Part shown: piece after piece, positions 4,269-41,547 of the stretch
Layout: the number at the start of each line of letters is the position of its first letter
Numbering within the stretch: position 1 is the stretch's first letter
Assembly: GCA_001776505.1 (NCBI GenBank)
Contig: MFBV01000032.1
Coordinates: 1-53,558 of the forward strand
Length of the DNA: 53,558 nt
Direction of reading: 5' to 3'
Source: Candidatus Curtissbacteria bacterium RIFCSPLOWO2_02_FULL_40_11
Lineage (GTDB): Bacteria; Patescibacteriota; Microgenomatia; Curtissbacterales; GWA2-41-24
Program-made: the position numbers and the translations under genes
Notes under the pieces: model-generated
What the model was told of the DNA's origin: nothing
Seen by the model: the letters and a program-made list of their open reading frames with translations, nothing else
Database searches by the model: none

Positions 4269-6119
4269 ATGAACTCAACCGTAGTCAGGCAAAAGTTTTT
4301 GAAGTTTTTTGCAAACAAGGGTCATAAAATCATTCCTTCGGCATCTTTAGTTCCCGATGAATCCGTCGAGCTTGCCGGGACACAAAGGGTTTTGTTTACC
4401 ACCGCCGGCATGCACCCGCTTGTTCCTTATCTATTGGGCAAAGCGCATCCGGAAGGTCAAAAGCTTACTAACATCCAGCGATGTTTGAGAACGGACGACA
4501 TCGACGAAGTTGGTGATAGTGTCCATAATACATTCTTTGAAATGCTTGGTAACTGGTCAATCGGTGATCCAAAATCATCAGATGGCATTGGCAAAAACGG
4601 CTATTGGAAAGAAGAAGCAATTTCCTGGTCTTATCAGTTTCTTATCAATGAGTTAAAACTCGATGCCAGACGAATTTATGTTTCAGTCTTTGCGGGAGAC
4701 AGTGATGCACCTTTTGATGAGGAATCTTTCGAAATATGGCGAAAACTGGGTGTAGCTGAAAAAAGAATATTTAAATACGGCAAAGAAGAAAATTGGTGGG
4801 GTCCGGTGGGCGAAACTGGCCCATGTGGGCCGGATACCGAAATGTTCTATGATCTTGACCCCACGTCAACAACGCCTATTGACCCCAGTAGCAACAGCAA
4901 TCGTTTCATAGAAATCTGGAACGATGTTTTTATGCAGTACGAGAAGAAAGTCAGAAGTCAGAAGTCAGAAGTCAGAAGTATATCAGAATCAGGCCCAAAC
5001 GAGTTTGAATTTGTTCCACTCAGGCAAAAAAATGTTGATACCGGAATGGGGCTTGAAAGAATTCTTACGGTTGTTCAAAACACCAAATCTATTTACGAAA
5101 CCGACCTTTTTTTGCCATTAATGAAAAAAATAGAAGATCTATCAACAAGTTACAATCAAAAGTCGGCTCGAATTGTTGCCGACCACATTCGCTCTGCAGT
5201 ATTTTTAATTTTCGACAGGGTCACACCATCGAATGTGGAACGCGGCTATATTCTGCGCCGCCTAATTCGAAGATCAATCCGTCACGCATCAATTTTGGAA
5301 ATCAACGAAGACTTTTTACAAAACTTAACTAAAACCGCAGTTAAAATTTATGAAGGTTTTTACCCCGGGCTTATCGAGCATGAAGACTTAATAATAAAAG
5401 AACTGCAAACTGAGGAGCAGAAATTCAAAAAAGCACTTGCTTCAGGAATTAGGGAATTTGAAAAGATAAAGGGCAACATTTCCGGCAAAGCGGCATTTGA
5501 TCTTTACCAGAATTTCGGCTTCCCGATTGAATTAACTGCCGAACTGGCGACAGAAAAAGGGAAAAGCGTAGATGTAAAAGAATTTGAAGAACTTCTGCGC
5601 GAGCATCAAGAAAAATCAAGAAAAGCAAGTGGTAAAACAAAAGGAGGTTTAGCGGTTCAGGGAGAAACAGCAGCCAAGCTACATACTGCCACTCACTTGC
5701 TTCATCAAGCACTTCGCGATGTCTTGGGCAAACATGTTCACCAAACGGGCTCACATATTACAGAAGAAAGGTTAAGGTTTGACTTTAGCCACGGTGAAAA
5801 AATGACCGCCGGCCAAATAAAAAAAGTAGAAAATATTGTTAACAAAAAAATTAAAGAAAATCTTTCCGTAAATAAGAAAATTATGCCTAAACAAGCTGCA
5901 GATAAATTGAGTGCCATTGGGCTGTTTGATGAAAAGTACGGTGATTTAGTTGATGTTTATTACATAGGTAATTCACCACACATCGAGAATGCTTATTCTA
6001 AAGAATTCTGTGGTGGGCCACATGCCAAGTCTACTGGCACTTTGGCAAGTTTTGTGGTAAAAAAAGAAGAATCAGCCGGCGCAGGAGTAAGAAGAATTTA
6101 TGCTACAATAGGAAAGTAA
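4269..6119 (+). CDS. alaS: alanine--tRNA ligase, compact form (616 aa) apparently lacking the C-Ala/DHHA1 domain
   Basis: FTTAGMHP, IEIWNDVFMQY, DTGMGLER, editing-domain HTATHLLHQALR and CGGPH motifs; ORF stops right after the editing domain. Confidence 0.93.
   Translation: MNSTVVRQKFLKFFANKGHKIIPSASLVPDESVELAGTQRVLFTTAGMHPLVPYLLGKAHPEGQKLTNIQRCLRTDDIDEVGDSVHNTFFEMLGNWSIGDPKSSDGIGKNGYWKEEAISWSYQFLINELKLDARRIYVSVFAGDSDAPFDEESFEIWRKLGVAEKRIFKYGKEENWWGPVGETGPCGPDTEMFYDLDPTSTTPIDPSSNSNRFIEIWNDVFMQYEKKVRSQKSEVRSISESGPNEFEFVPLRQKNVDTGMGLERILTVVQNTKSIYETDLFLPLMKKIEDLSTSYNQKSARIVADHIRSAVFLIFDRVTPSNVERGYILRRLIRRSIRHASILEINEDFLQNLTKTAVKIYEGFYPGLIEHEDLIIKELQTEEQKFKKALASGIREFEKIKGNISGKAAFDLYQNFGFPIELTAELATEKGKSVDVKEFEELLREHQEKSRKASGKTKGGLAVQGETAAKLHTATHLLHQALRDVLGKHVHQTGSHITEERLRFDFSHGEKMTAGQIKKVENIVNKKIKENLSVNKKIMPKQAADKLSAIGLFDEKYGDLVDVYYIGNSPHIENAYSKEFCGGPHAKSTGTLASFVVKKEESAGAGVRRIYATIGK
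4949..4979 (+). repeat. heptanucleotide tandem repeat (AGTCAGA x about 4.4) inside alaS
   Basis: Direct reading of agtcagaagtcagaagtcagaagtcagaagt; encodes VRSQKSEVRSQKSEVRS. Confidence 0.95.
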
Positions 6120-6879: not shown

Positions 6880-9057
6880 ATGGCTATAGCCGATATTGTT
6901 GGCCGATTTATAAAAAAAGAGTCTGAAGAAGAAAACAACTTTCTTTCTCTCTCGTTAACTCCCGACAGGGTCCTGGCTACTATTTGGGCACTTGAAGGAG
7001 AAAAGGTTGAAGTTTTAGGATTTTCAAGAAAATCTTTTCAAAACATTGATAGCATTATTCACCAATCAGCTATAGCGATAGATGCTGCTGCCGAGAAGGC
7101 AAAAAGCGACGTTTCGCAAGTTGTGTTTGGTCTTTCTAGCAGTTGGTTTGACGATGGGAAAATTAAAAAAGACGCAATAAAACTTTTAAAAAAACTTTCT
7201 CAAGAGCTCGAGCTAGACTCCCAAGCATTTGTACCGCTAGCATCATCTATTAAAAACTATTTGAAATATGAAGAAGGAGTTACACCTCATGCTGTATTAA
7301 TTGGAGCTTTTAATGATTCTTCTGAGGTCCATTTACTTAAAAACAACGAGGTCGAAAAGACGCTAGAATCAAGGAGCAAACCTACTTTCGAAAAAATATC
7401 AGAGTTAGTTAAACAATTAGGAGATGAAAAAGATCTTCCGCTAAAAATAATTGTTTTTGGTATCCCAGATGATTCCCGGTTAGCAGAAGAGATACAGAAA
7501 CACGAGTGGAGTGGTACTTTTATTCACAAACCGAAAGTCGAGTTTTTAAAAAATAGGGATGTTTCAAAATCTGTTGCTTTTGCGCAAGCAACAGATTTTT
7601 TAGGCCACGAATTGTCTCAGGCGCCAACGGCTACAGCTCCAATTGTTAAACTTGGCGATATTGCCGAGAAAAAATTATCTTCAGAGACTGGCGAACTTGG
7701 ATTTATAGAAGACGAGGATATCCTCAAGAAAAATGAAGAGACGCAACCAGCAGAGAAGGAAACTACTCATCACGAAACACAGGAAGACCTAGCGGTCGAA
7801 GTTGACCAAAATGTTAAACAAGCAGAACCTACTGCAGTAATGCATGAGTCACCTAAAAAAGAAAAGGGGAGTCTCATTGAAAATATTGCAACGTTGGGTT
7901 GGTTCTCTAAATTAACAAATATTTTTAAAGGTCCGGGGGTCGCTAAAAAGTTAGGTATGGGTATTGCTATACTTATGGTTTTGGGGTTAGTGGGGGTGTT
8001 TATGGCAGGTAGAACACTCACTAGTGCAGAAGTAGTAATCAAAGTCAATGCGCAGTCTCAAGAGGAAAGTTTCGATGTAAATGTAATTAAAGGAGCATCA
8101 TCAGATTTTTCAAAACAACAAATTGGCGGACAAGAAATAATAGGCGCGGCTACTGGGAGTCGCAAAGCGGTAGCTACTGGAACTAAAGAACTGGGTGAAC
8201 CGGCCAAGGGCGAAGTAACTATTTTCAATTGGACAACATCAGAGACAACTTTTTCTCCAGGGACAGTTATTATTTCAAAAAACGGTATTAAGTTTGAACT
8301 AGATGGAGATATTTCTGTAGCTTCACGAAGTGCTTCGACCCCAGGAGAATCCAATATAGCTGTTATTGCAGTCGACTTCGGATCTGAAGGCAACGTGGGT
8401 GCAGGAACAGATTTTACGTTCCAAGAATTCGATGAGCTTCTTTACTCCGGAACTAATGAGAATTCATTTTCAGGTGGAGATGAAAAAGAAGTGACCGTTG
8501 TTTCACAAGAAGATTTGGATAAATTAGAAGAATCTTTGCTTGAGACCCTAGAGGAAAATGCAATTTCTAACCTTAAAGAAAAACTGGCCGGTAAAACATT
8601 TTCCGAAAGTAGCATAGATATCGAAGTAACCAAACGAGTTTTTGACCATGAAGTTGATAAAGAGGCGTCTCTTGTGAACCTCGATATGGGAGTTGAAGCA
8701 ACAGCCATAGCATATAGCGACGATGATCTTAAAAAATTGCTTGCAGAAAATGTTAAGGAAGATGCACCCCAAAACCTAGAGGCAAAAGCAGACGACATCA
8801 GATTATTAAGCGTTGATGCCGCAATTACATCTAGGGGTTTAAATCTCACAGGAAATTTTGAAGCAAAATTTGTACCTAAATTCGAAGAAAATGATCTTAA
8901 AGAAAAAATTGCTGGCAAAAGTGTGAAGAAAACACGCGAAATAATTAAAAGTCTACCAGAAGTTTCTGATGTCAGCGTAAACTTCTCACCGAGTTTTTTC
9001 TTTGCAAGTACGTTACCGATTAACAAAGAGAAAATTACATTTAAGGTCGAAACGTAG
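6880..9057 (+). CDS. large membrane protein, cytoplasmic N-terminal domain plus mid TM plus extracellular beta-rich domain
   Basis: 725-aa ORF with TM LGMGIAILMVLGLVGVFMAG near residue 350; C-terminal half resembles baseplate-J-like beta-rich proteins (weak recollection only). Confidence 0.55.
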   Translation: MAIADIVGRFIKKESEEENNFLSLSLTPDRVLATIWALEGEKVEVLGFSRKSFQNIDSIIHQSAIAIDAAAEKAKSDVSQVVFGLSSSWFDDGKIKKDAIKLLKKLSQELELDSQAFVPLASSIKNYLKYEEGVTPHAVLIGAFNDSSEVHLLKNNEVEKTLESRSKPTFEKISELVKQLGDEKDLPLKIIVFGIPDDSRLAEEIQKHEWSGTFIHKPKVEFLKNRDVSKSVAFAQATDFLGHELSQAPTATAPIVKLGDIAEKKLSSETGELGFIEDEDILKKNEETQPAEKETTHHETQEDLAVEVDQNVKQAEPTAVMHESPKKEKGSLIENIATLGWFSKLTNIFKGPGVAKKLGMGIAILMVLGLVGVFMAGRTLTSAEVVIKVNAQSQEESFDVNVIKGASSDFSKQQIGGQEIIGAATGSRKAVATGTKELGEPAKGEVTIFNWTTSETTFSPGTVIISKNGIKFELDGDISVASRSASTPGESNIAVIAVDFGSEGNVGAGTDFTFQEFDELLYSGTNENSFSGGDEKEVTVVSQEDLDKLEESLLETLEENAISNLKEKLAGKTFSESSIDIEVTKRVFDHEVDKEASLVNLDMGVEATAIAYSDDDLKKLLAENVKEDAPQNLEAKADDIRLLSVDAAITSRGLNLTGNFEAKFVPKFEENDLKEKIAGKSVKKTREIIKSLPEVSDVSVNFSPSFFFASTLPINKEKITFKVET

Positions 9058-9061
9058 AGAG

Positions 9062-9793
9062 ATGTCACTGGAAATTTATTCCAAGGATCCCCCCATTAGT
9101 TACAACTCTGAAATAAAAAGCAGAGATAGATACTTTTTTGCTCTGATTTCGATTATTGGCTTAGGAGCAGTTTTATTCGCAACTTGGCCTTTTTTCGTTT
9201 GGCAAATGAGTACTCTTCCAAGGCTTTCTGGCGGGTTCGATGATGCTCCTATTCCCCAAGCAAGAGTGCTTTCCGCAAAAAGCCCCAATTTAGAAAATAT
9301 TCAAGTAGTTCAAGATGCCGATGGGTTCTCTTATTTTATCCCCACAAATTTATCAGAGAATGATCCGAATGATGAGAACCGTTCTAAAGAATTTTCAGTT
9401 TCTATTCCTAAACTCAATATTAATAATGCTATTGCAAAAGTTGATAGTCTCGATTTTCGCAAAAACCTATCTCATTTTCCAGGAACAGCTCTCCCCGGAG
9501 AAGTCGGCAACTCTTTCATTACCGGCCATTCGGTACTGCCCCAATTTAGCGATCCGGAAAACTACAATGCAATTTTCACCAAGCTCTCCGATTTAGAAAT
9601 TGGTGACAAGGTTAATGTGGCAAGAGACGGAAAACAATATCAGTACATAGTCCAATACTCAAAAGTCGTAAACCCAAAAGATCTTTCGGTGTTAGCACCG
9701 ATTAGCGAAAATGCCAAAAACCTGACTCTTATGACCTGCGTACCACCCGGCACAAATATCAAGCGATTGGTTGTCATCACGAGTTTAATATAA
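9062..9793 (+). CDS. sortase family transpeptidase (ATG 9062 preferred over the track start 9002)
   Basis: N-terminal TM, catalytic His context FITGHSVL, TLxTC motif LTLMTCVPPG, downstream conserved Arg (KRLVV). Confidence 0.85.
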   Translation: MSLEIYSKDPPISYNSEIKSRDRYFFALISIIGLGAVLFATWPFFVWQMSTLPRLSGGFDDAPIPQARVLSAKSPNLENIQVVQDADGFSYFIPTNLSENDPNDENRSKEFSVSIPKLNINNAIAKVDSLDFRKNLSHFPGTALPGEVGNSFITGHSVLPQFSDPENYNAIFTKLSDLEIGDKVNVARDGKQYQYIVQYSKVVNPKDLSVLAPISENAKNLTLMTCVPPGTNIKRLVVITSLI

Positions 9794-10730: not shown

Positions 10731-11507
10731 ATGACCCACGAAGTACCTCAAGGTAACGAAAGTCCCAGACGTGTTCTCGAAGAAATTCTTGCTAACAAGA
10801 GAAAAGAGATTGCTCTAAGGTATCCGGAAAAACCTAGCAGTTTTATAGAAATGTTTAGAGATGCCGATTGGCCCGTCGTAATTGCAGAGATAAAACCAAA
10901 ATCTCCTTCAGCAGGTAAACTAATTGATGAAAACCCCGTCAATTTAGTACAAAAATTTCAGCAAGGAGGAGCAGGAGCTATTTCAGTTCTTACGGATAAA
11001 AAATATTTTGGAGGTAGTCCTGAATTATTTTTGCAAATTCGCGAAGCGACAAAATTACCGATGCTTTGGAAAGATTTTGTCATTAGCGCAGATCAGCTAG
11101 TAGATGCCCAACAAAGGGGAGCCGACGCAGTGCTTTTAATAGTTACAGCCTTAAGGAGACAAAATGTAGATTTGAAAGCAATGATTAACTTTTCAAAAGC
11201 TCTTGGTCTTACACCTGTGGTGGAAGTCCATGACAATCGGGAAAGAGCTGAAGCTCTTATGGCTGGAGCAAATATCATTGGTGTAAATTCGCGCAATTTA
11301 GATACTTTGCAAGAGAATCCTTTTCTGGCTTTAGAAGTTTTGAGCCAGATACCGAGTGGTCGAATAGCGTTACTTTTTTCCAGCATTAAATCAAGGGAAG
11401 ATGTTGAGAAAGCAAGACAAGCTGGAGCAAAAGGTGTTTTGGTAGGGACGTCAATTTTAAAAGCTCCTGACCCAGTTGAAAAGTTAAGAGAGCTGACTTC
11501 AAGTTGA
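10731..11507 (+). CDS. trpC: indole-3-glycerol phosphate synthase
   Basis: VIAEIKPKSPSAG, ISVLTDKKYFGGS, GVNSRNL motifs; TIM-barrel size (258 aa). Confidence 0.88.
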   Translation: MTHEVPQGNESPRRVLEEILANKRKEIALRYPEKPSSFIEMFRDADWPVVIAEIKPKSPSAGKLIDENPVNLVQKFQQGGAGAISVLTDKKYFGGSPELFLQIREATKLPMLWKDFVISADQLVDAQQRGADAVLLIVTALRRQNVDLKAMINFSKALGLTPVVEVHDNRERAEALMAGANIIGVNSRNLDTLQENPFLALEVLSQIPSGRIALLFSSIKSREDVEKARQAGAKGVLVGTSILKAPDPVEKLRELTSS

Positions 11508-11555
11508 CAAAAAGTTAATCCTCATCAACAATACCTTGATGATTCTTGGCATTGA
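11504..11555 (+). repeat. ghost copy of the ruvX promoter plus first 6 codons (direct repeat of 12526-12577)
   Basis: 48 of 52 nt identical; first 30 nt, including TTGACA, are identical; encodes MILGID then diverges to a stop (11539-11589). Confidence 0.9.
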
Positions 11556-12490: not shown

Positions 12491-12525
12491 TTTTTATCGC
12501 TAATTATACTTATAATTATTTAAAT

Positions 12526-12577
12526 TTGACAAAAAGTTAATCCTCATCAACAATATCCTCATGATTCTTGGAATTGA
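12526..12577 (+). repeat. live copy of the ruvX promoter/5' end repeat
   Basis: TTGACA at 12526-12531; ATG of ruvX at 12561. Confidence 0.9.
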
Positions 12578-21433: not shown

Positions 21434-21478
21434 CAAAACTCGACACTTCATAAAATGGTTGATATAATTCGTCGATCT

Positions 21479-21575
21479 AATTTAATTTGAATCTAGCTTT
21501 GCTTGTTCAAATTTTTCCTATAAGGGAAAGAGGAATATTAAGGAGAAAACCGTAGGTTGTCTCCTTAAAGTAGTT
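21479..21575 (+). promoter_or_regulatory. conserved structured leader/operator, copy 1 (upstream of rpsL)
   Basis: About 85 percent identical to 41447-41547; hairpins TTTGAA..TTCAAA, TTCCT..AGGAA, AAGGAGA-AACC-GTA-GGTT-TCTCCTT. Confidence 0.75.
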
Positions 21576-23065: not shown

Positions 23066-23819
23066 AAGGGACGGTCCTTGAAAAAGTTGTTATATCAACC
23101 TAAATCAAGCAATTTTATTTAGTTTTAGCCCTCATATATTTCTTTTGTGCATATGTAGCAAATTTAACGTTCCCCATTACAGCCTCTTCCTTCTCAAATA
23201 ATTTTTCAATAGCACTCAAATCCTCTGAAATTCCGTTAATGATAAATTTCTCATATTCCTTCCTTGAGTTTTCAGTTTTCCCAATCAATCTAATGATATT
23301 TTTATCAAGGAAATGGAGTTGTTCTTTACCAAGAGCTTCTCTGATACTGCTGTATTTGTAATCTAATGGATTTTTGGCTAAGTTAGCTTTAACCGGATTT
23401 AGGTAGATATACTGGGAAAGTTTTAAGAAATATGAATCATTTTCAATGAGGATACTTTTAAATCTGTTTTGAAACACAGGTCCGAAGTGTTCATATTTTC
23501 GATTGAAATACATTGAATAACTTGTTCCCAAGGACGCCATTATCTTTGAGATTGGAACTTTGCGCGTCTGAATCGAAATATGGAAATGGTTTGGCATTAG
23601 ACAAAAAGCATAAAGAGAATGGTCGTACTTGTTTTTTAAGTCATTAAGTTTTCTTAAAAAGAATTGATAATCAGGTTCTGAAATAAAAATAGGTTGTTTG
23701 TTGATGCCCCTATTAAAGACGTGATAGAAAGCATCTGTGAATACGAACCGTGCGCCTCTAGGCATAGAATGTATGTTAATTTTAGCCTATTGCATGAGGC
23801 TTTTCAAGGACCGTCCCTT
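23066..23819. mobile_element. minimal IS200/RayT-like unit: Y1 transposase gene bracketed by perfect 19-bp inverted repeats
   Basis: AAGGGACGGTCCTTGAAAA at 23066-23084 and its exact reverse complement at 23801-23819; each repeat contains a small imperfect palindrome. Confidence 0.8.
23115..23765 (-). CDS. HUH Y1 transposase, IS200-like / REP-associated (RayT-like, COG1943)
   Basis: YHVFNRG, HUH motif LMPNHFHI, catalytic-Tyr context YIYLNPVKANL. Confidence 0.85.
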   Translation of the reverse strand: MPRGARFVFTDAFYHVFNRGINKQPIFISEPDYQFFLRKLNDLKNKYDHSLYAFCLMPNHFHISIQTRKVPISKIMASLGTSYSMYFNRKYEHFGPVFQNRFKSILIENDSYFLKLSQYIYLNPVKANLAKNPLDYKYSSIREALGKEQLHFLDKNIIRLIGKTENSRKEYEKFIINGISEDLSAIEKLFEKEEAVMGNVKFATYAQKKYMRAKTK

Positions 23820-29229: not shown

Positions 29230-29399
29230 TTATAGAATCGTTATATTGCTGAATTGGTGAACCGATTTAACGATATAACAATTTAGCAATTGGACAATCT
29301 ATTTTAGGTGGGACACCTGAAAACCCCTCCTTCGCTATTCAAGCTTCGGAGGGTGAAATCTCAAGGAGTCCTGCTTTTTTGGCGCACAAAGAGAACAAA

Positions 29400-30314
29400 A
29401 TGATTAAAACGATCTTAGGTACTAAATCAAATATGTCGTCAGTATACAACCAGTTCGGTCATCAGGTACCGGTAACTACCGTTATGGCCGAACCAAATAT
29501 TGTATTCGGTATACGAGATAAAAAAATTATACTTGGGTTAGGTAAAAAGAAAATATCTAAGAAAACAGAAAACACCTATCTAAAAATAGCAGGATTCCCA
29601 CCAAGATTTATTAAAGAAGTAACACTAAAAAACGAAACATCAAAAGAACAAAAAACCTCAGAAATTCCTCAAGAAAATTCCCAACAAAACCAAGAAGTTG
29701 CCAAAAAAATTAATTTAGGAGACAAAATAACAGTCTCCATTTTTGAACCTGGCGACGAAGTAAAGGTGACGGGAACTACCAAAGGTAAGGGTTTTACTGG
29801 AGTCGTCAAAAGGTGGGGTTTTGCTGGAGGTCCAAAAACTCACGGCCAATCCGACCGCCATAGAGCGCCTGGATCTATTGGAATGGGAACCACGCCGGGG
29901 CGTGTTTTTAAGGGAAAGAAAATGGCAGGGCATCTGGGTAACTCTAAACTTACTGTTACTGGTCTTGAGGTAATTGAAGTTAACGAAGATAAAAATATTA
30001 TTTTAATTAAGGGTGCAATTCCAGGCCCAAAGGATGGTTTTTTAATAATTGAAAAAACTGGAAAAGTAAAAAGTTATACTCTTCCACCACCGAGCGAAGA
30101 AAAACAGACAGCCGCCGAAGGCCTGCTACACCCGCTTCGACACGTCGCCGAAGGCGAACCTCGCCAATGGCGGGTCGAAGACGAGGCGAGCGGCGAGGCG
30201 AGCGAACCTCGACCCGAAAGTTGGGAAAAAGAAGCGAAAGCTGATGAGAAAGAAGAAACAAAAGGGACAAAAGAGTTGAAGGAAAAGGAGGAAAATGAAG
30301 ATGCCAAGAGTTAA
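29400..30314 (+). CDS. rplC: 50S ribosomal protein L3 with internal insertion and about 85-aa C-terminal extension (ATG 29400; alternative TTG 29379 after AAGGAG)
   Basis: MIKTILGTKSNMS, GTTKGKGFTGVVKRWGFAGGPKTHGQSDRHRAPGSIG. Confidence 0.95.
   Translation: MIKTILGTKSNMSSVYNQFGHQVPVTTVMAEPNIVFGIRDKKIILGLGKKKISKKTENTYLKIAGFPPRFIKEVTLKNETSKEQKTSEIPQENSQQNQEVAKKINLGDKITVSIFEPGDEVKVTGTTKGKGFTGVVKRWGFAGGPKTHGQSDRHRAPGSIGMGTTPGRVFKGKKMAGHLGNSKLTVTGLEVIEVNEDKNIILIKGAIPGPKDGFLIIEKTGKVKSYTLPPPSEEKQTAAEGLLHPLRHVAEGEPRQWRVEDEASGEASEPRPESWEKEAKADEKEETKGTKELKEKEENEDAKS
30100..30225 (+). repeat. GC-rich hairpin-dense segment embedded in frame in the rplC 3' extension
   Basis: Locally GC-rich (gccgccgaaggcc...cgaacctcgacccg); contains the CGCC-GAA-GGCG / CGCC-AAT-GGCG module also seen at 3321-3351, and a CGGGTCGA...TCGACCCG stem. 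Confidence 0.8.
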
Positions 30315-32267: not shown

Positions 32268-32329
32268 TAGTTCAAAATATCAAGGAGCGAAGCGAGGCTG
32301 ATTTAGTTAAAGAAAGAAAGAGAAAATAA

Positions 32330-35786: not shown

Positions 35787-35824
35787 CGATGAAGGTATAT
35801 TTACATAAATTAAATCAAATCTCA

Positions 35825-35900
35825 AAATTGGATCTGGCAAGGCCAGAACAATTTGGCCCACTTAAGGGAAACCGTAGGTATTCCTTAAAAGTCAGTTAAC
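35825..35900 (+). promoter_or_regulatory. short variant of the rpsL/rpsM leader motif (upstream of rpsN)
   Basis: AAATTG-gatCTGGCaaGCCAGaa-CAATTT covaries with TTTGAA..TTCAAA; AAGGGAA-ACC-GTA-GGT-ATTCCTT keeps the ACCGTAGGT loop of the rpsL copy; ends TCCTTAAAAGT. Confidence 0.6.
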
Positions 35901-36086: not shown

Positions 36087-36144
36087 TTCAACAATTAGAA
36101 ATTAGAAATTTTAAATTAGAAATTCCCGACTAAAAGGAGGACCA

Positions 36145-41371: not shown

Positions 41372-41446
41372 TAGATAATTTAAAAATCAAATATTAAAGA
41401 TCAAAATTAAAAATGAAAATAATAAGTCTAAAAGTAAAACTACTAA

Positions 41447-41547
41447 AATTTAATTTGAATCTGGCTCGGCCAGTTCAAATTATTCCTACAAGGGAAAGAG
41501 GAATATTAAGGAGAAAACCTCAAGGCTTGTCTCCTTAAAGTAAATTT
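41447..41547 (+). promoter_or_regulatory. conserved structured leader/operator, copy 2 (upstream of rpsM)
   Basis: See 21479-21575; hairpin TTTGAAtCTGGC-tcg-GCCAGTTCAAA; AAGGAGA...TCTCCTT hairpin ends 11 nt before the ATG. Confidence 0.75.

Follow-up and report, generated by a model that had tools for sequence, protein, structure and literature searches.

The sequence directly upstream of rpsL in the analysed DNA of Candidatus Curtissbacteria, a member of the Candidate Phyla Radiation (CPR, or Patescibacteria), is, as judged from comparative sequence analysis, one copy of a multi-copy and fast-turning-over family of transcribed cassettes of ~100 nucleotides (nt). The entire stretch of DNA that was analysed, hereafter referred to as the window, is 53.5 kb long and contains the rpoB-rpoC-str-S10-spc-alpha region; besides the rpsL copy, it carries a second full-length cassette in the rpmJ/rpsM spacer and a short cassette in the rplE/rpsN spacer. 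A full-length cassette is composed of a first hairpin (P1), a purine-rich core that resembles a Shine-Dalgarno (SD) sequence and is associated with a weak stem (P2), and a final hairpin (P3) located just before the start codon. The cassette is a putative RNA family, previously undescribed, with an unusual start-anchored and almost sense-only distribution in CPR bacteria. With regard to its role, we assign a probability of roughly 0.5 to the view that the cassette is a cis-acting post-transcriptional module which affects RNA stability or initiation context.

Distribution, structure and conservation of the cassette family

The first-pass annotation of this DNA described an ~85% identical repeat upstream of rpsL and rpsM, with a shorter variant upstream of rpsN, and this description stands. 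The two long copies (97 and 101 nt) are identical in 88 of 102 aligned columns (86%) over their full length and represent the longest direct repeat of the window (73 nt ungapped, 90% identity), while the rpsN copy has P1 and P3 in common with the long copies and lacks the middle part. The three hairpins fold as had been described, the predicted folds of the three copies having z-scores of -2.3 to -3.3 and their P3 hairpins energies of -14.1, -11.1 and -9.1 kcal/mol. Two further details are valid for some of the copies: the palindromic CTGGC/GCCAG is present in P1 of the rpsM and rpsN copies, whereas in the rpsL copy these arms read CTAGC/GCTTG and contain a single U-U mismatch, and the apical ACCGTAGGT is found in the rpsL and rpsN copies, whereas the rpsM copy has ACCTCAAGGCT. 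A search of the window with the family model and with filters off returned no fourth copy, a rightward extension of the window by 10 kb contained no additional copy, and inspection by eye revealed no conserved upstream small open reading frame (ORF) inside the cassette.

A covariance model (R1) was built from six full copies, and a family model (R2) was also used. The relatives comprised 18 species representatives of Candidatus Curtissbacteria (L001-L018), with an L2 protein identity of 66-82%, the next-best genomes reaching at most 59%. Scanning relatives in this manner had been proposed in the first-pass annotation, and it returned 18-20 copies in 11 of the 18 loci, every one of them on the gene strand and located upstream of rpsL, tuf, rplB, rpsS, rpsC, rplP, rplN, rpsH, rplF, infA, rpmJ or rpsM. 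A single 12 kb locus (L016) contains seven copies, with several subfamilies residing side by side in the one genome. The loci of the relatives are centred on the ribosomal-protein cluster, and the metagenome scan alone is unbiased by gene; it required a degenerate pattern of the conserved core, which was matched by at least 116 stretches, and among the matches listed at least 89 are model-confirmed copies. Many metagenome assemblies furthermore hold contigs which encode an S12 protein identical to that of the window.

The family appears to be specific to this lineage, since 62 control loci of other phyla (950 kb) gave zero model matches. Viral contigs contained no true copy, and a phage origin was rejected because the two pattern matches encountered there both fail as cassette copies. 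A search of the whole window against Rfam at gathering thresholds returned tRNA only, and a search with both long copies at E values of up to 10 returned nothing relevant, in agreement with the first-pass annotation, which did not recognise the element as a described ribosomal-protein leader. In the literature on RNA motifs, leaders and intergenic elements of Patescibacteria, Curtissbacteria and the CPR, no description of the cassette was found.

Table 1. Location of the cassette copies, their parts and further features of the window
Feature	Position	Strand	Details
Full-length cassette copy 1, rpsL 5' untranslated region (UTR)	21478..21575	+	start codon 21576; R1 108.5 bits, R2 105.3 bits; fold z -2.5
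P1 hairpin, copy 1	21484..21513	+	AAUUUGAAUCUAGC UUU GCUUGUUCAAAUU; -7.3 kcal/mol
Purine-rich SD-like core with weak P2 stem, copy 1	21516..21537	+	core UCCUAUAAGGGAAAGAGGAAUA; P2 UUCC/GGAA
P3 hairpin, copy 1	21538..21568	+	UUAAGGAGA x UCUCCUUAA, conserved A.G mismatch, apical AACC-GUA-GGUU; -14.1 kcal/mol
Full-length cassette copy 2, rpmJ/rpsM spacer	41446..41547	+	start codon 41548; R1 102.8 bits, R2 99.1 bits; fold z -3.3
Parts of copy 2	P1 41452-41481; core/P2 41484-41505; P3 41506-41538	+	
Short cassette copy 3, rplE/rpsN spacer	35819..35900	+	start codon 35901; R2 40 bits, E = 2e-5
Parts of copy 3	P1 35825-35854; P3 35862-35888	+	without purine-rich core
rpsL sigma-70-type promoter	21440..21468	+	TCGACA, 17 nt spacer, TG-extended TATAAT; 11/12 matches; outside cassette
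Y1 transposase gene	23115-23765	-	PF01797, IS200-like, 216 aa; with three small ORFs between rpsG and fusA
Inverted perfect 19-mers flanking the Y1 gene	23066-23084; 23801-23819		AAGGGACGGTCCTTGAAAA, each an imperfect palindrome
Second spacer cassette, rpsN-rpsH spacer	36087-36144		reads CCCGACTAAAAGGAGG
Hairpin-containing rplB-rpsS spacer	32268-32329		hairpin ATATCAAGGAGCGAAGCGAGGCTGAT
58-nt repeat	11498-11555; 12520-12577		90% identity

The cassette is a predicted structured RNA which is conserved, its pairs being kept by compensatory substitutions on the transcribed strand. Covariation was analysed across 53 distinct copies in an alignment that was fitted to the model, which favours structure. 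Compensatory changes were observed at 13 of the 14 pairs of P1 (94% of cells paired) and at eight of the 13 pairs of P3 (91% of cells paired), and the covariation in relatives that the first-pass annotation had put forward as a check is thus present; P2 is weak, with 78% of cells paired and scant covariation. The covariation score amounts to 0.308, as compared to 0.114 in shuffles and to at most 0.076 after displacement of the pairing partners by 1-3 columns, while double-change cells number 188 versus 58 in shuffles. A six-sequence MAFFT alignment alone contains 10 covarying pairs. On the sense strand, 16 G.U pairs were counted against seven A.C mismatches, an excess which lends mild support to RNA rather than duplex DNA as the form that is maintained. 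Furthermore, P1 sequences differ among the copies of one genome yet stay self-complementary, which argues for a folded strand and not for a site that is bound by one DNA-binding protein.

The most conserved part of the family is the purine stretch GGGAAAG(A)GGAAUAUUAAGG, which is nearly invariant. In P3, UUAAGG(R)(R) pairs with (Y)(Y)CCUUAA and the A.G mismatch is conserved; the lower stem, UUAAGG/CCUUAA, is also nearly invariant and covaries in a few copies to CUAAGG/CCUUAG or CCAAGG/CCUUGG, while the apical loop is variable in the family (GUA, GUUA, GCA or UCAAGG). An intrinsic terminator, as a reading of the cassette or of P1, was rejected because no U run follows P1 and because the scanner calls none on the + strand at the three copies. 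The genuine terminators of this genome differ in look from the cassette hairpins.

Genomic contexts, occupancy and spacer replacement

The contexts of 79 non-identical copies were surveyed, the metagenome copies being those among the matches listed. About half of the 79 precede translation or transcription genes, at least 20 of which are represented (rpsL/G/C/H/S/M/N, rplB/C/D/F/L/N/P, rpmJ, tuf, infA, secY, rpoA and rpoC), and in the metagenome sample such genes follow 27 of ~59 copies. The other downstream genes encode the ATP synthase c subunit, HrcA, an ABC ATPase, a formyltransferase, proline-rich membrane proteins and small acidic proteins. In addition, the cassette adjoins the mature 5' ends of transfer-messenger RNA (tmRNA; L103, L098), tRNA-Met (L091, L105) and tRNA-Val (L090), while at two orthologous loci, and probably at a third, a lone cassette is followed by a canonical intrinsic terminator. 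All but one of the copies (78/79) are in sense orientation relative to the downstream gene, the L122 copy alone being antisense to its neighbours, and P3 is separated from the downstream start by a median of ~9 nt. In approximately seven contexts, a native AGGAGGUGA is retained between cassette and AUG. As far as these contexts allow the cassette to be classified, it is a generic and portable module of 5' leaders and intercistronic spacers rather than an operator dedicated to particular ribosomal proteins.

Orthologous positions are occupied in a minority of the relatives. The rpsL site holds a cassette in one of six readable loci (L010), the rpsM site in three of 13 (L013, L015 and L016) and the rpsN site in the window only, being empty in L001-L018. 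Orthologous spacers measure 0-10 nt where the site is empty versus 120-166 nt where it is occupied, and the empty sites display stop-start coupling, often with the SD within the upstream gene. Turnover is also apparent between strains: strain L200, whose S12 protein is identical to that of the window, possesses an extra copy upstream of rplC (L200:17823-17922; the window counterpart being ~29387-29399), where 118 nt substitute for 13 nt (CAAAGAGAACAAA) and stop 1 nt short of the ATG, the target not being duplicated. This comparison suggests that rplC truly starts at the ATG at 29400 rather than at the TTG at 29379. As the cassette supplants tightly coupled spacers in essential operons, the downstream cistron would be expressed by fresh initiation from a cassette-bearing RNA.

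In a GC-richer lineage, a cassette core and P3 are located directly upstream of an unclassified RNA of ~95 nt (L186, about 8965-9079, - strand). This RNA, for which no Rfam family match was obtained, is predicted to fold into a four-way junction with CAAAUUUGG/CCAAAUUUG as its closing stem, adjoins tRNA genes and is also found in L132, L117, L082, L145 and L191.

Proposed role and competing explanations

In the window, the rpsL promoter is located upstream of copy 1 and transcription is predicted to start near 21475-21478, so that the whole cassette would be transcribed as 5' UTR. Relatives retain this promoter whether or not they carry the cassette; where the cassette is present, the distance between the two is 4-10 nt, and in the window, L010 and L083 the promoter directly precedes it. 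In the rpsL copies, the predicted transcription start is followed after ~2-12 nt by P1, and the SD-like tract is present, while the tmRNA and tRNA-Met copies are preceded by a TAGAAT -10 box at ~65-70 nt. As a separate observation, L103, L098 and L091 contain an extra module ~20-60 nt upstream of the cassette, consisting of the hairpin CAAAAUCC-GUA-GGAUUUUG followed by GAAGAGGAGAAA.

According to the reading that we favour, the cassette would be co-transcribed with whatever lies downstream, and, in replacing the native spacer of 0-10 nt, it would break stop-start coupling. The downstream RNA would then gain a self-contained and protected 5' region, whose 5'-proximal hairpin and SD-like tract, along with the other hairpin beside the start, are reminiscent of Gram-positive 5' stabilisers, and an unpaired, SD-less AUG behind this region would serve fresh initiation. 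The window encodes RNase Y, which makes RNA decay of the Gram-positive type plausible. The part played in stability or initiation is one that we infer entirely from the family, structure, contexts and turnover described above.

A number of observations weigh against a role in stability or initiation. The first-pass annotation correctly noted that the P3 hairpin and the ATG have no SD between them: within the 20 nt that precede the start, the three window copies reach -1.7, -0.8 and -1.0 kcal/mol in their best anti-SD duplex. However, about half of the window genes are without an SD (e.g., those with starts at 4269, 6124 and 10731, and likewise rpsL in L004 and L009), and its absence after P3 is therefore no proof of ribosome binding supplied by the cassette. 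The strongest SD-like run resides in the distal 5' arm of P3, 30-36 nt from the AUG, and prediction gives the three window copies a start region of ordinary accessibility. The copies upstream of tRNA and tmRNA need no translation function, and -10-like hexamers at both cassette edges leave room for a promoter role. Finally, UUAAGG/CCUUAA and the purine core are more invariant than a simple stabiliser would need, which hints at a specific partner.

Several narrower mechanisms were also considered. The proposal that the cassette supplies the only SD is weakened by the same proportion of window genes that do without one. Occlusion of the AUG was rejected, as the start regions, 57-74% of which is unpaired in prediction, are neither unusually paired nor unusually unpaired and the start codons are not sequestered. 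An SD-sequestering hairpin, i.e., an RNA thermometer or riboswitch platform, was rejected because the SD-like arm is distal and the strand beside the AUG is pyrimidine-rich.

An unlikely alternative is that of a mobile promoter cassette acting at the DNA level, whose own -10 box would give rise to leaderless mRNAs, tRNA and tmRNA. In 37 of 77 copies, the 3' foot of P3 carries the hexamer TAAAGT, the commonest distance being 6 nt to the A of the AUG, as also to the 5' G of tmRNA, and 20 of 50 copies have a TAnAAT that ends 1-3 nt ahead of P1, in three cases together with a good -35 box 17 nt upstream. Several operon heads of this genome look leaderless, and several with a -10 box 8-15 nt before the ATG suggest that leaderless or very short-leader mRNAs are frequent in the lineage. 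The reuse of promoters upstream of unrelated genes, moreover, is a described phenomenon (PMC3575422). On the other hand, no -35 box that is conserved by position accompanies the cassette, T occupies position 6 in only ~60% of the hexamers at the P3 foot, and three covarying copies (TGGAGT, TGGAGA and TGGGTA) have lost the essential A at position 2 yet keep P3 pairing. In 17 copies the distance from this hexamer to the start is 3-5 nt, which is not long enough. P1 and P3 covary over their full stems and must therefore be transcribed, the ancestral rpsL promoter persists upstream of the cassette, and a terminator placed straight after stand-alone copies would be senseless for a bare promoter. 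The specific promoter suggested in the first-pass annotation, with TTGAAT as -35 and the palindrome as operator, does not hold either, as no hexamer pair reaching the scan threshold of 9/12 matches lies wholly within the element at the three window copies and as P1 varies while staying complementary. An internal promoter with TATTAA or AATATT as its -10 box was likewise rejected, those bases covarying within P3 and hence being transcribed.

We regard as slightly less probable again a selfish dispersed repeat of the repetitive extragenic palindromic (REP) or miniature inverted-repeat transposable element (MITE) type, spread as single-stranded DNA hairpins, for instance by a Y1/HUH transposase, and devoid of host function. 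Patchy occupancy among close relatives and strains would be expected of such an element, as would the coexistence of several subfamilies in one genome (L016), and a Y1_Tnp gene encoding 216 aa, with inverted hairpins on its flanks in a RAYT/REPIN-like layout, is situated 1.5 kb downstream of the rpsL copy. However, the cassette has no terminal inverted repeats, its P1-side and P3-side ends being unrelated in sequence, and no target-site duplication is seen at the one readable strain polymorphism. The native spacer is replaced right up to the start codon, orientation is sense in 78 of 79 copies with the 3' end held ~9 nt from the start, 27 of the ~59 listed metagenome copies precede translation or transcription genes, and the purine core is conserved far beyond what a neutral repeat would show. 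A link between the cassette and the Y1 transposase, in the manner of REP/REPIN-RAYT systems, was rejected because the flanking hairpins are a different and single-locus sequence: among 204 loci, the 19-mer AAGGGACGGTCCTTGAAAA does not occur beyond the Y1 locus.

Lower still we place the possibility that the cassette is a binding site for one global factor, or a small RNA released for it, in which P3 mimics the 3' end of 16S rRNA and mediates feedback on ribosome synthesis. The first-pass annotation had pointed out that CTCCTTA equals the last 7 nt of 16S rRNA, which was verified for E. coli, and the P3 of the rpsL copy (AAGG-AGAA-AACCGUAGG-UUG-U-CUCCUUA) shares further elements, in the same order, with the E. 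coli 16S 3' end (AAGG-U-AACCGUAGG-[10 nt]-GUUG-GAUCAC-CUCCUUA). A global factor would also be compatible with the near-invariance of UUAAGG/CCUUAA, the one A.G mismatch and the purine core, with the enrichment of contexts for translation and transcription genes and stable RNAs, and with stand-alone copies that end in a terminator and could act in trans. In its most specific version, which is more doubtful than the general one, P3 would constitute a miniature 16S 3' end (the AACC/GGUU base of helix 45 plus an anti-SD tail) folded onto an SD. The 30S subunit, or one factor that normally recognises the 16S 3' end, would then read the cassette, which could take the form of a leader or of a small RNA set free from tRNA/tmRNA precursors and from stand-alone genes; if true, these reduced bacteria would have a single RNA feedback loop that governs ribosomal proteins, EF-Tu, RNA polymerase and stable RNAs together with other growth genes. 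The resemblance is nevertheless offset by the variation of the apical loop and by the occurrence of a CC-GUA-GG hairpin in the unrelated upstream module, such that the 9-mer match may reflect a mere hairpin preference. Furthermore, the comparison was made with the 16S rRNA of E. coli, a search of the available loci having returned neither a 16S rRNA gene nor an rRNA operon, and not every context is a growth gene (PurN, the nrdR region and small acidic proteins being exceptions).

That the cassette acts in cis as a processive antitermination element, in the manner of rrn boxB-boxA or put, is very improbable. The P3 foot and tail (CUCCUUAAACAA or CCCUUAAAGU) appear to resemble boxA (GCUCUUUAACAA), the foot follows a hairpin as in rrn leaders, and copies are found within long operons (rpoB-rpoC and the S10-spc-alpha cluster) as well as before stable RNA genes. 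Yet the boxA-like bases are paired within P3, and single short tRNA genes need no antitermination.

The least probable of all, and close to negligible, is the autoregulatory ribosomal-protein leader, bound by S7, S4 or S12, that would coordinate three 30S operon heads: all three copies of the window indeed precede genes for 30S proteins, but more than 20 other downstream types were found (among them 50S proteins, RNA polymerase subunits, EF-Tu, non-ribosomal genes, tRNA and tmRNA), orthologous sites are not conserved among relatives and are usually empty, and no Rfam ribosomal-protein leader is matched. Of the cis-regulatory RNA envisaged in the first-pass annotation, the conserved and covarying structured RNA is thus retained and the coordinated control of the three 30S heads is not; that annotation had itself named a repeat dispersed irrespective of gene as the outcome that would speak against its regulon, and this is largely what the contexts revealed.

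Other spacer modules and comparison with known systems

The first-pass annotation considered the other spacers of the genome to be unrelated, which is roughly correct, although other repeated spacer modules exist. A second spacer cassette consists of AT-rich short repeats (AATTAGAAATT...) followed by TTCGACTGAAAGGAG / (T)TCGACTGAAAGGAG, then 5-8 nt and the start codon; it makes use of the spacers that also take up the first cassette and sits in different intercistronic spacers in different relatives, being present in the rpsN-rpsH spacer of the window and in spacers of L001, L010, L015 and L017. The rplB-rpsS spacer of the window contains a conserved hairpin and then a purine-rich SD region, an arrangement which is common to L003, L005, L007, L012 and L015 and is absent from the others, where the spacer measures -1 to 4 nt. 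Finally, the second copy of the 58-nt repeat covers a promoter-like region and the first codons of ruvX (ATGATTCTTGG...), while the first copy looks like a duplicated fragment of the ruvX 5' end.

Members of the CPR/Patescibacteria have very small genomes, in which few regulators are known and hardly any non-coding RNAs have been described. Within this setting, the cassette has invaded the most conserved of bacterial operons, including rpoB-rpoC and the gene junctions of the S10-spc-alpha cluster, and has done so in a strain-variable manner. Should the cassette determine RNA stability or initiation, this lineage would have had its gene expression rewired by ready-made leaders that take the place of stop-start coupling. 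The covariance model may in addition provide a computational handle for transcription-unit starts and expression modules in uncultivated bacteria.

Short (~100 nt), many-copy transcribed repeats are represented by the Correia elements of Neisseria (CREE), enterobacterial ERIC, REP/BIME, and pneumococcal BOX and RUP. Like the cassette, these repeats are generally known to reside in transcribed spacers, to form hairpins in mRNA, to vary in occupancy between strains and to be capable of altering the expression or stability of neighbouring genes. The cassette differs from them in that it has neither terminal inverted repeats nor a target duplication, in its near-strict sense orientation and in the placement of its 3' end ~9 nt from the start; it is, moreover, found inside the ribosomal-protein cluster, abuts tRNA and tmRNA, and combines an SD:anti-SD-like hairpin with an invariant purine core.

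The 5' mRNA stabilisers of Gram-positive bacteria include the STAB-SD of Bacillus thuringiensis cryIIIA, the leader hairpin of Bacillus subtilis aprE and the ermC leader. As is generally understood, these are portable 5' modules that act on whatever RNA follows and contain a hairpin near the 5' end, an SD-like sequence remote from the start codon, or both, in which respects the cassette would be alike. The stabilisers, however, are single-locus leaders, whereas the cassette is a dispersed family and its best SD-like run is paired in P3.

The binding sites of S4 in the alpha operon, S7 in the str operon and S8 in the spc operon, together with the Rfam ribosomal-protein leaders, share with the cassette a structured RNA just upstream of ribosomal-protein cistrons and a possible resemblance to rRNA. 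In contrast to such leaders, the cassette is one motif associated with many unrelated genes at unfixed positions, and it matches no Rfam entry. Lastly, putative mobile promoters (PMC3575422) resemble the cassette in that near-identical upstream sequences precede non-homologous genes within and between genomes; unlike these promoters, the cassette is a covarying RNA located downstream of at least some promoters, without a conserved -35/-10 pair of its own.

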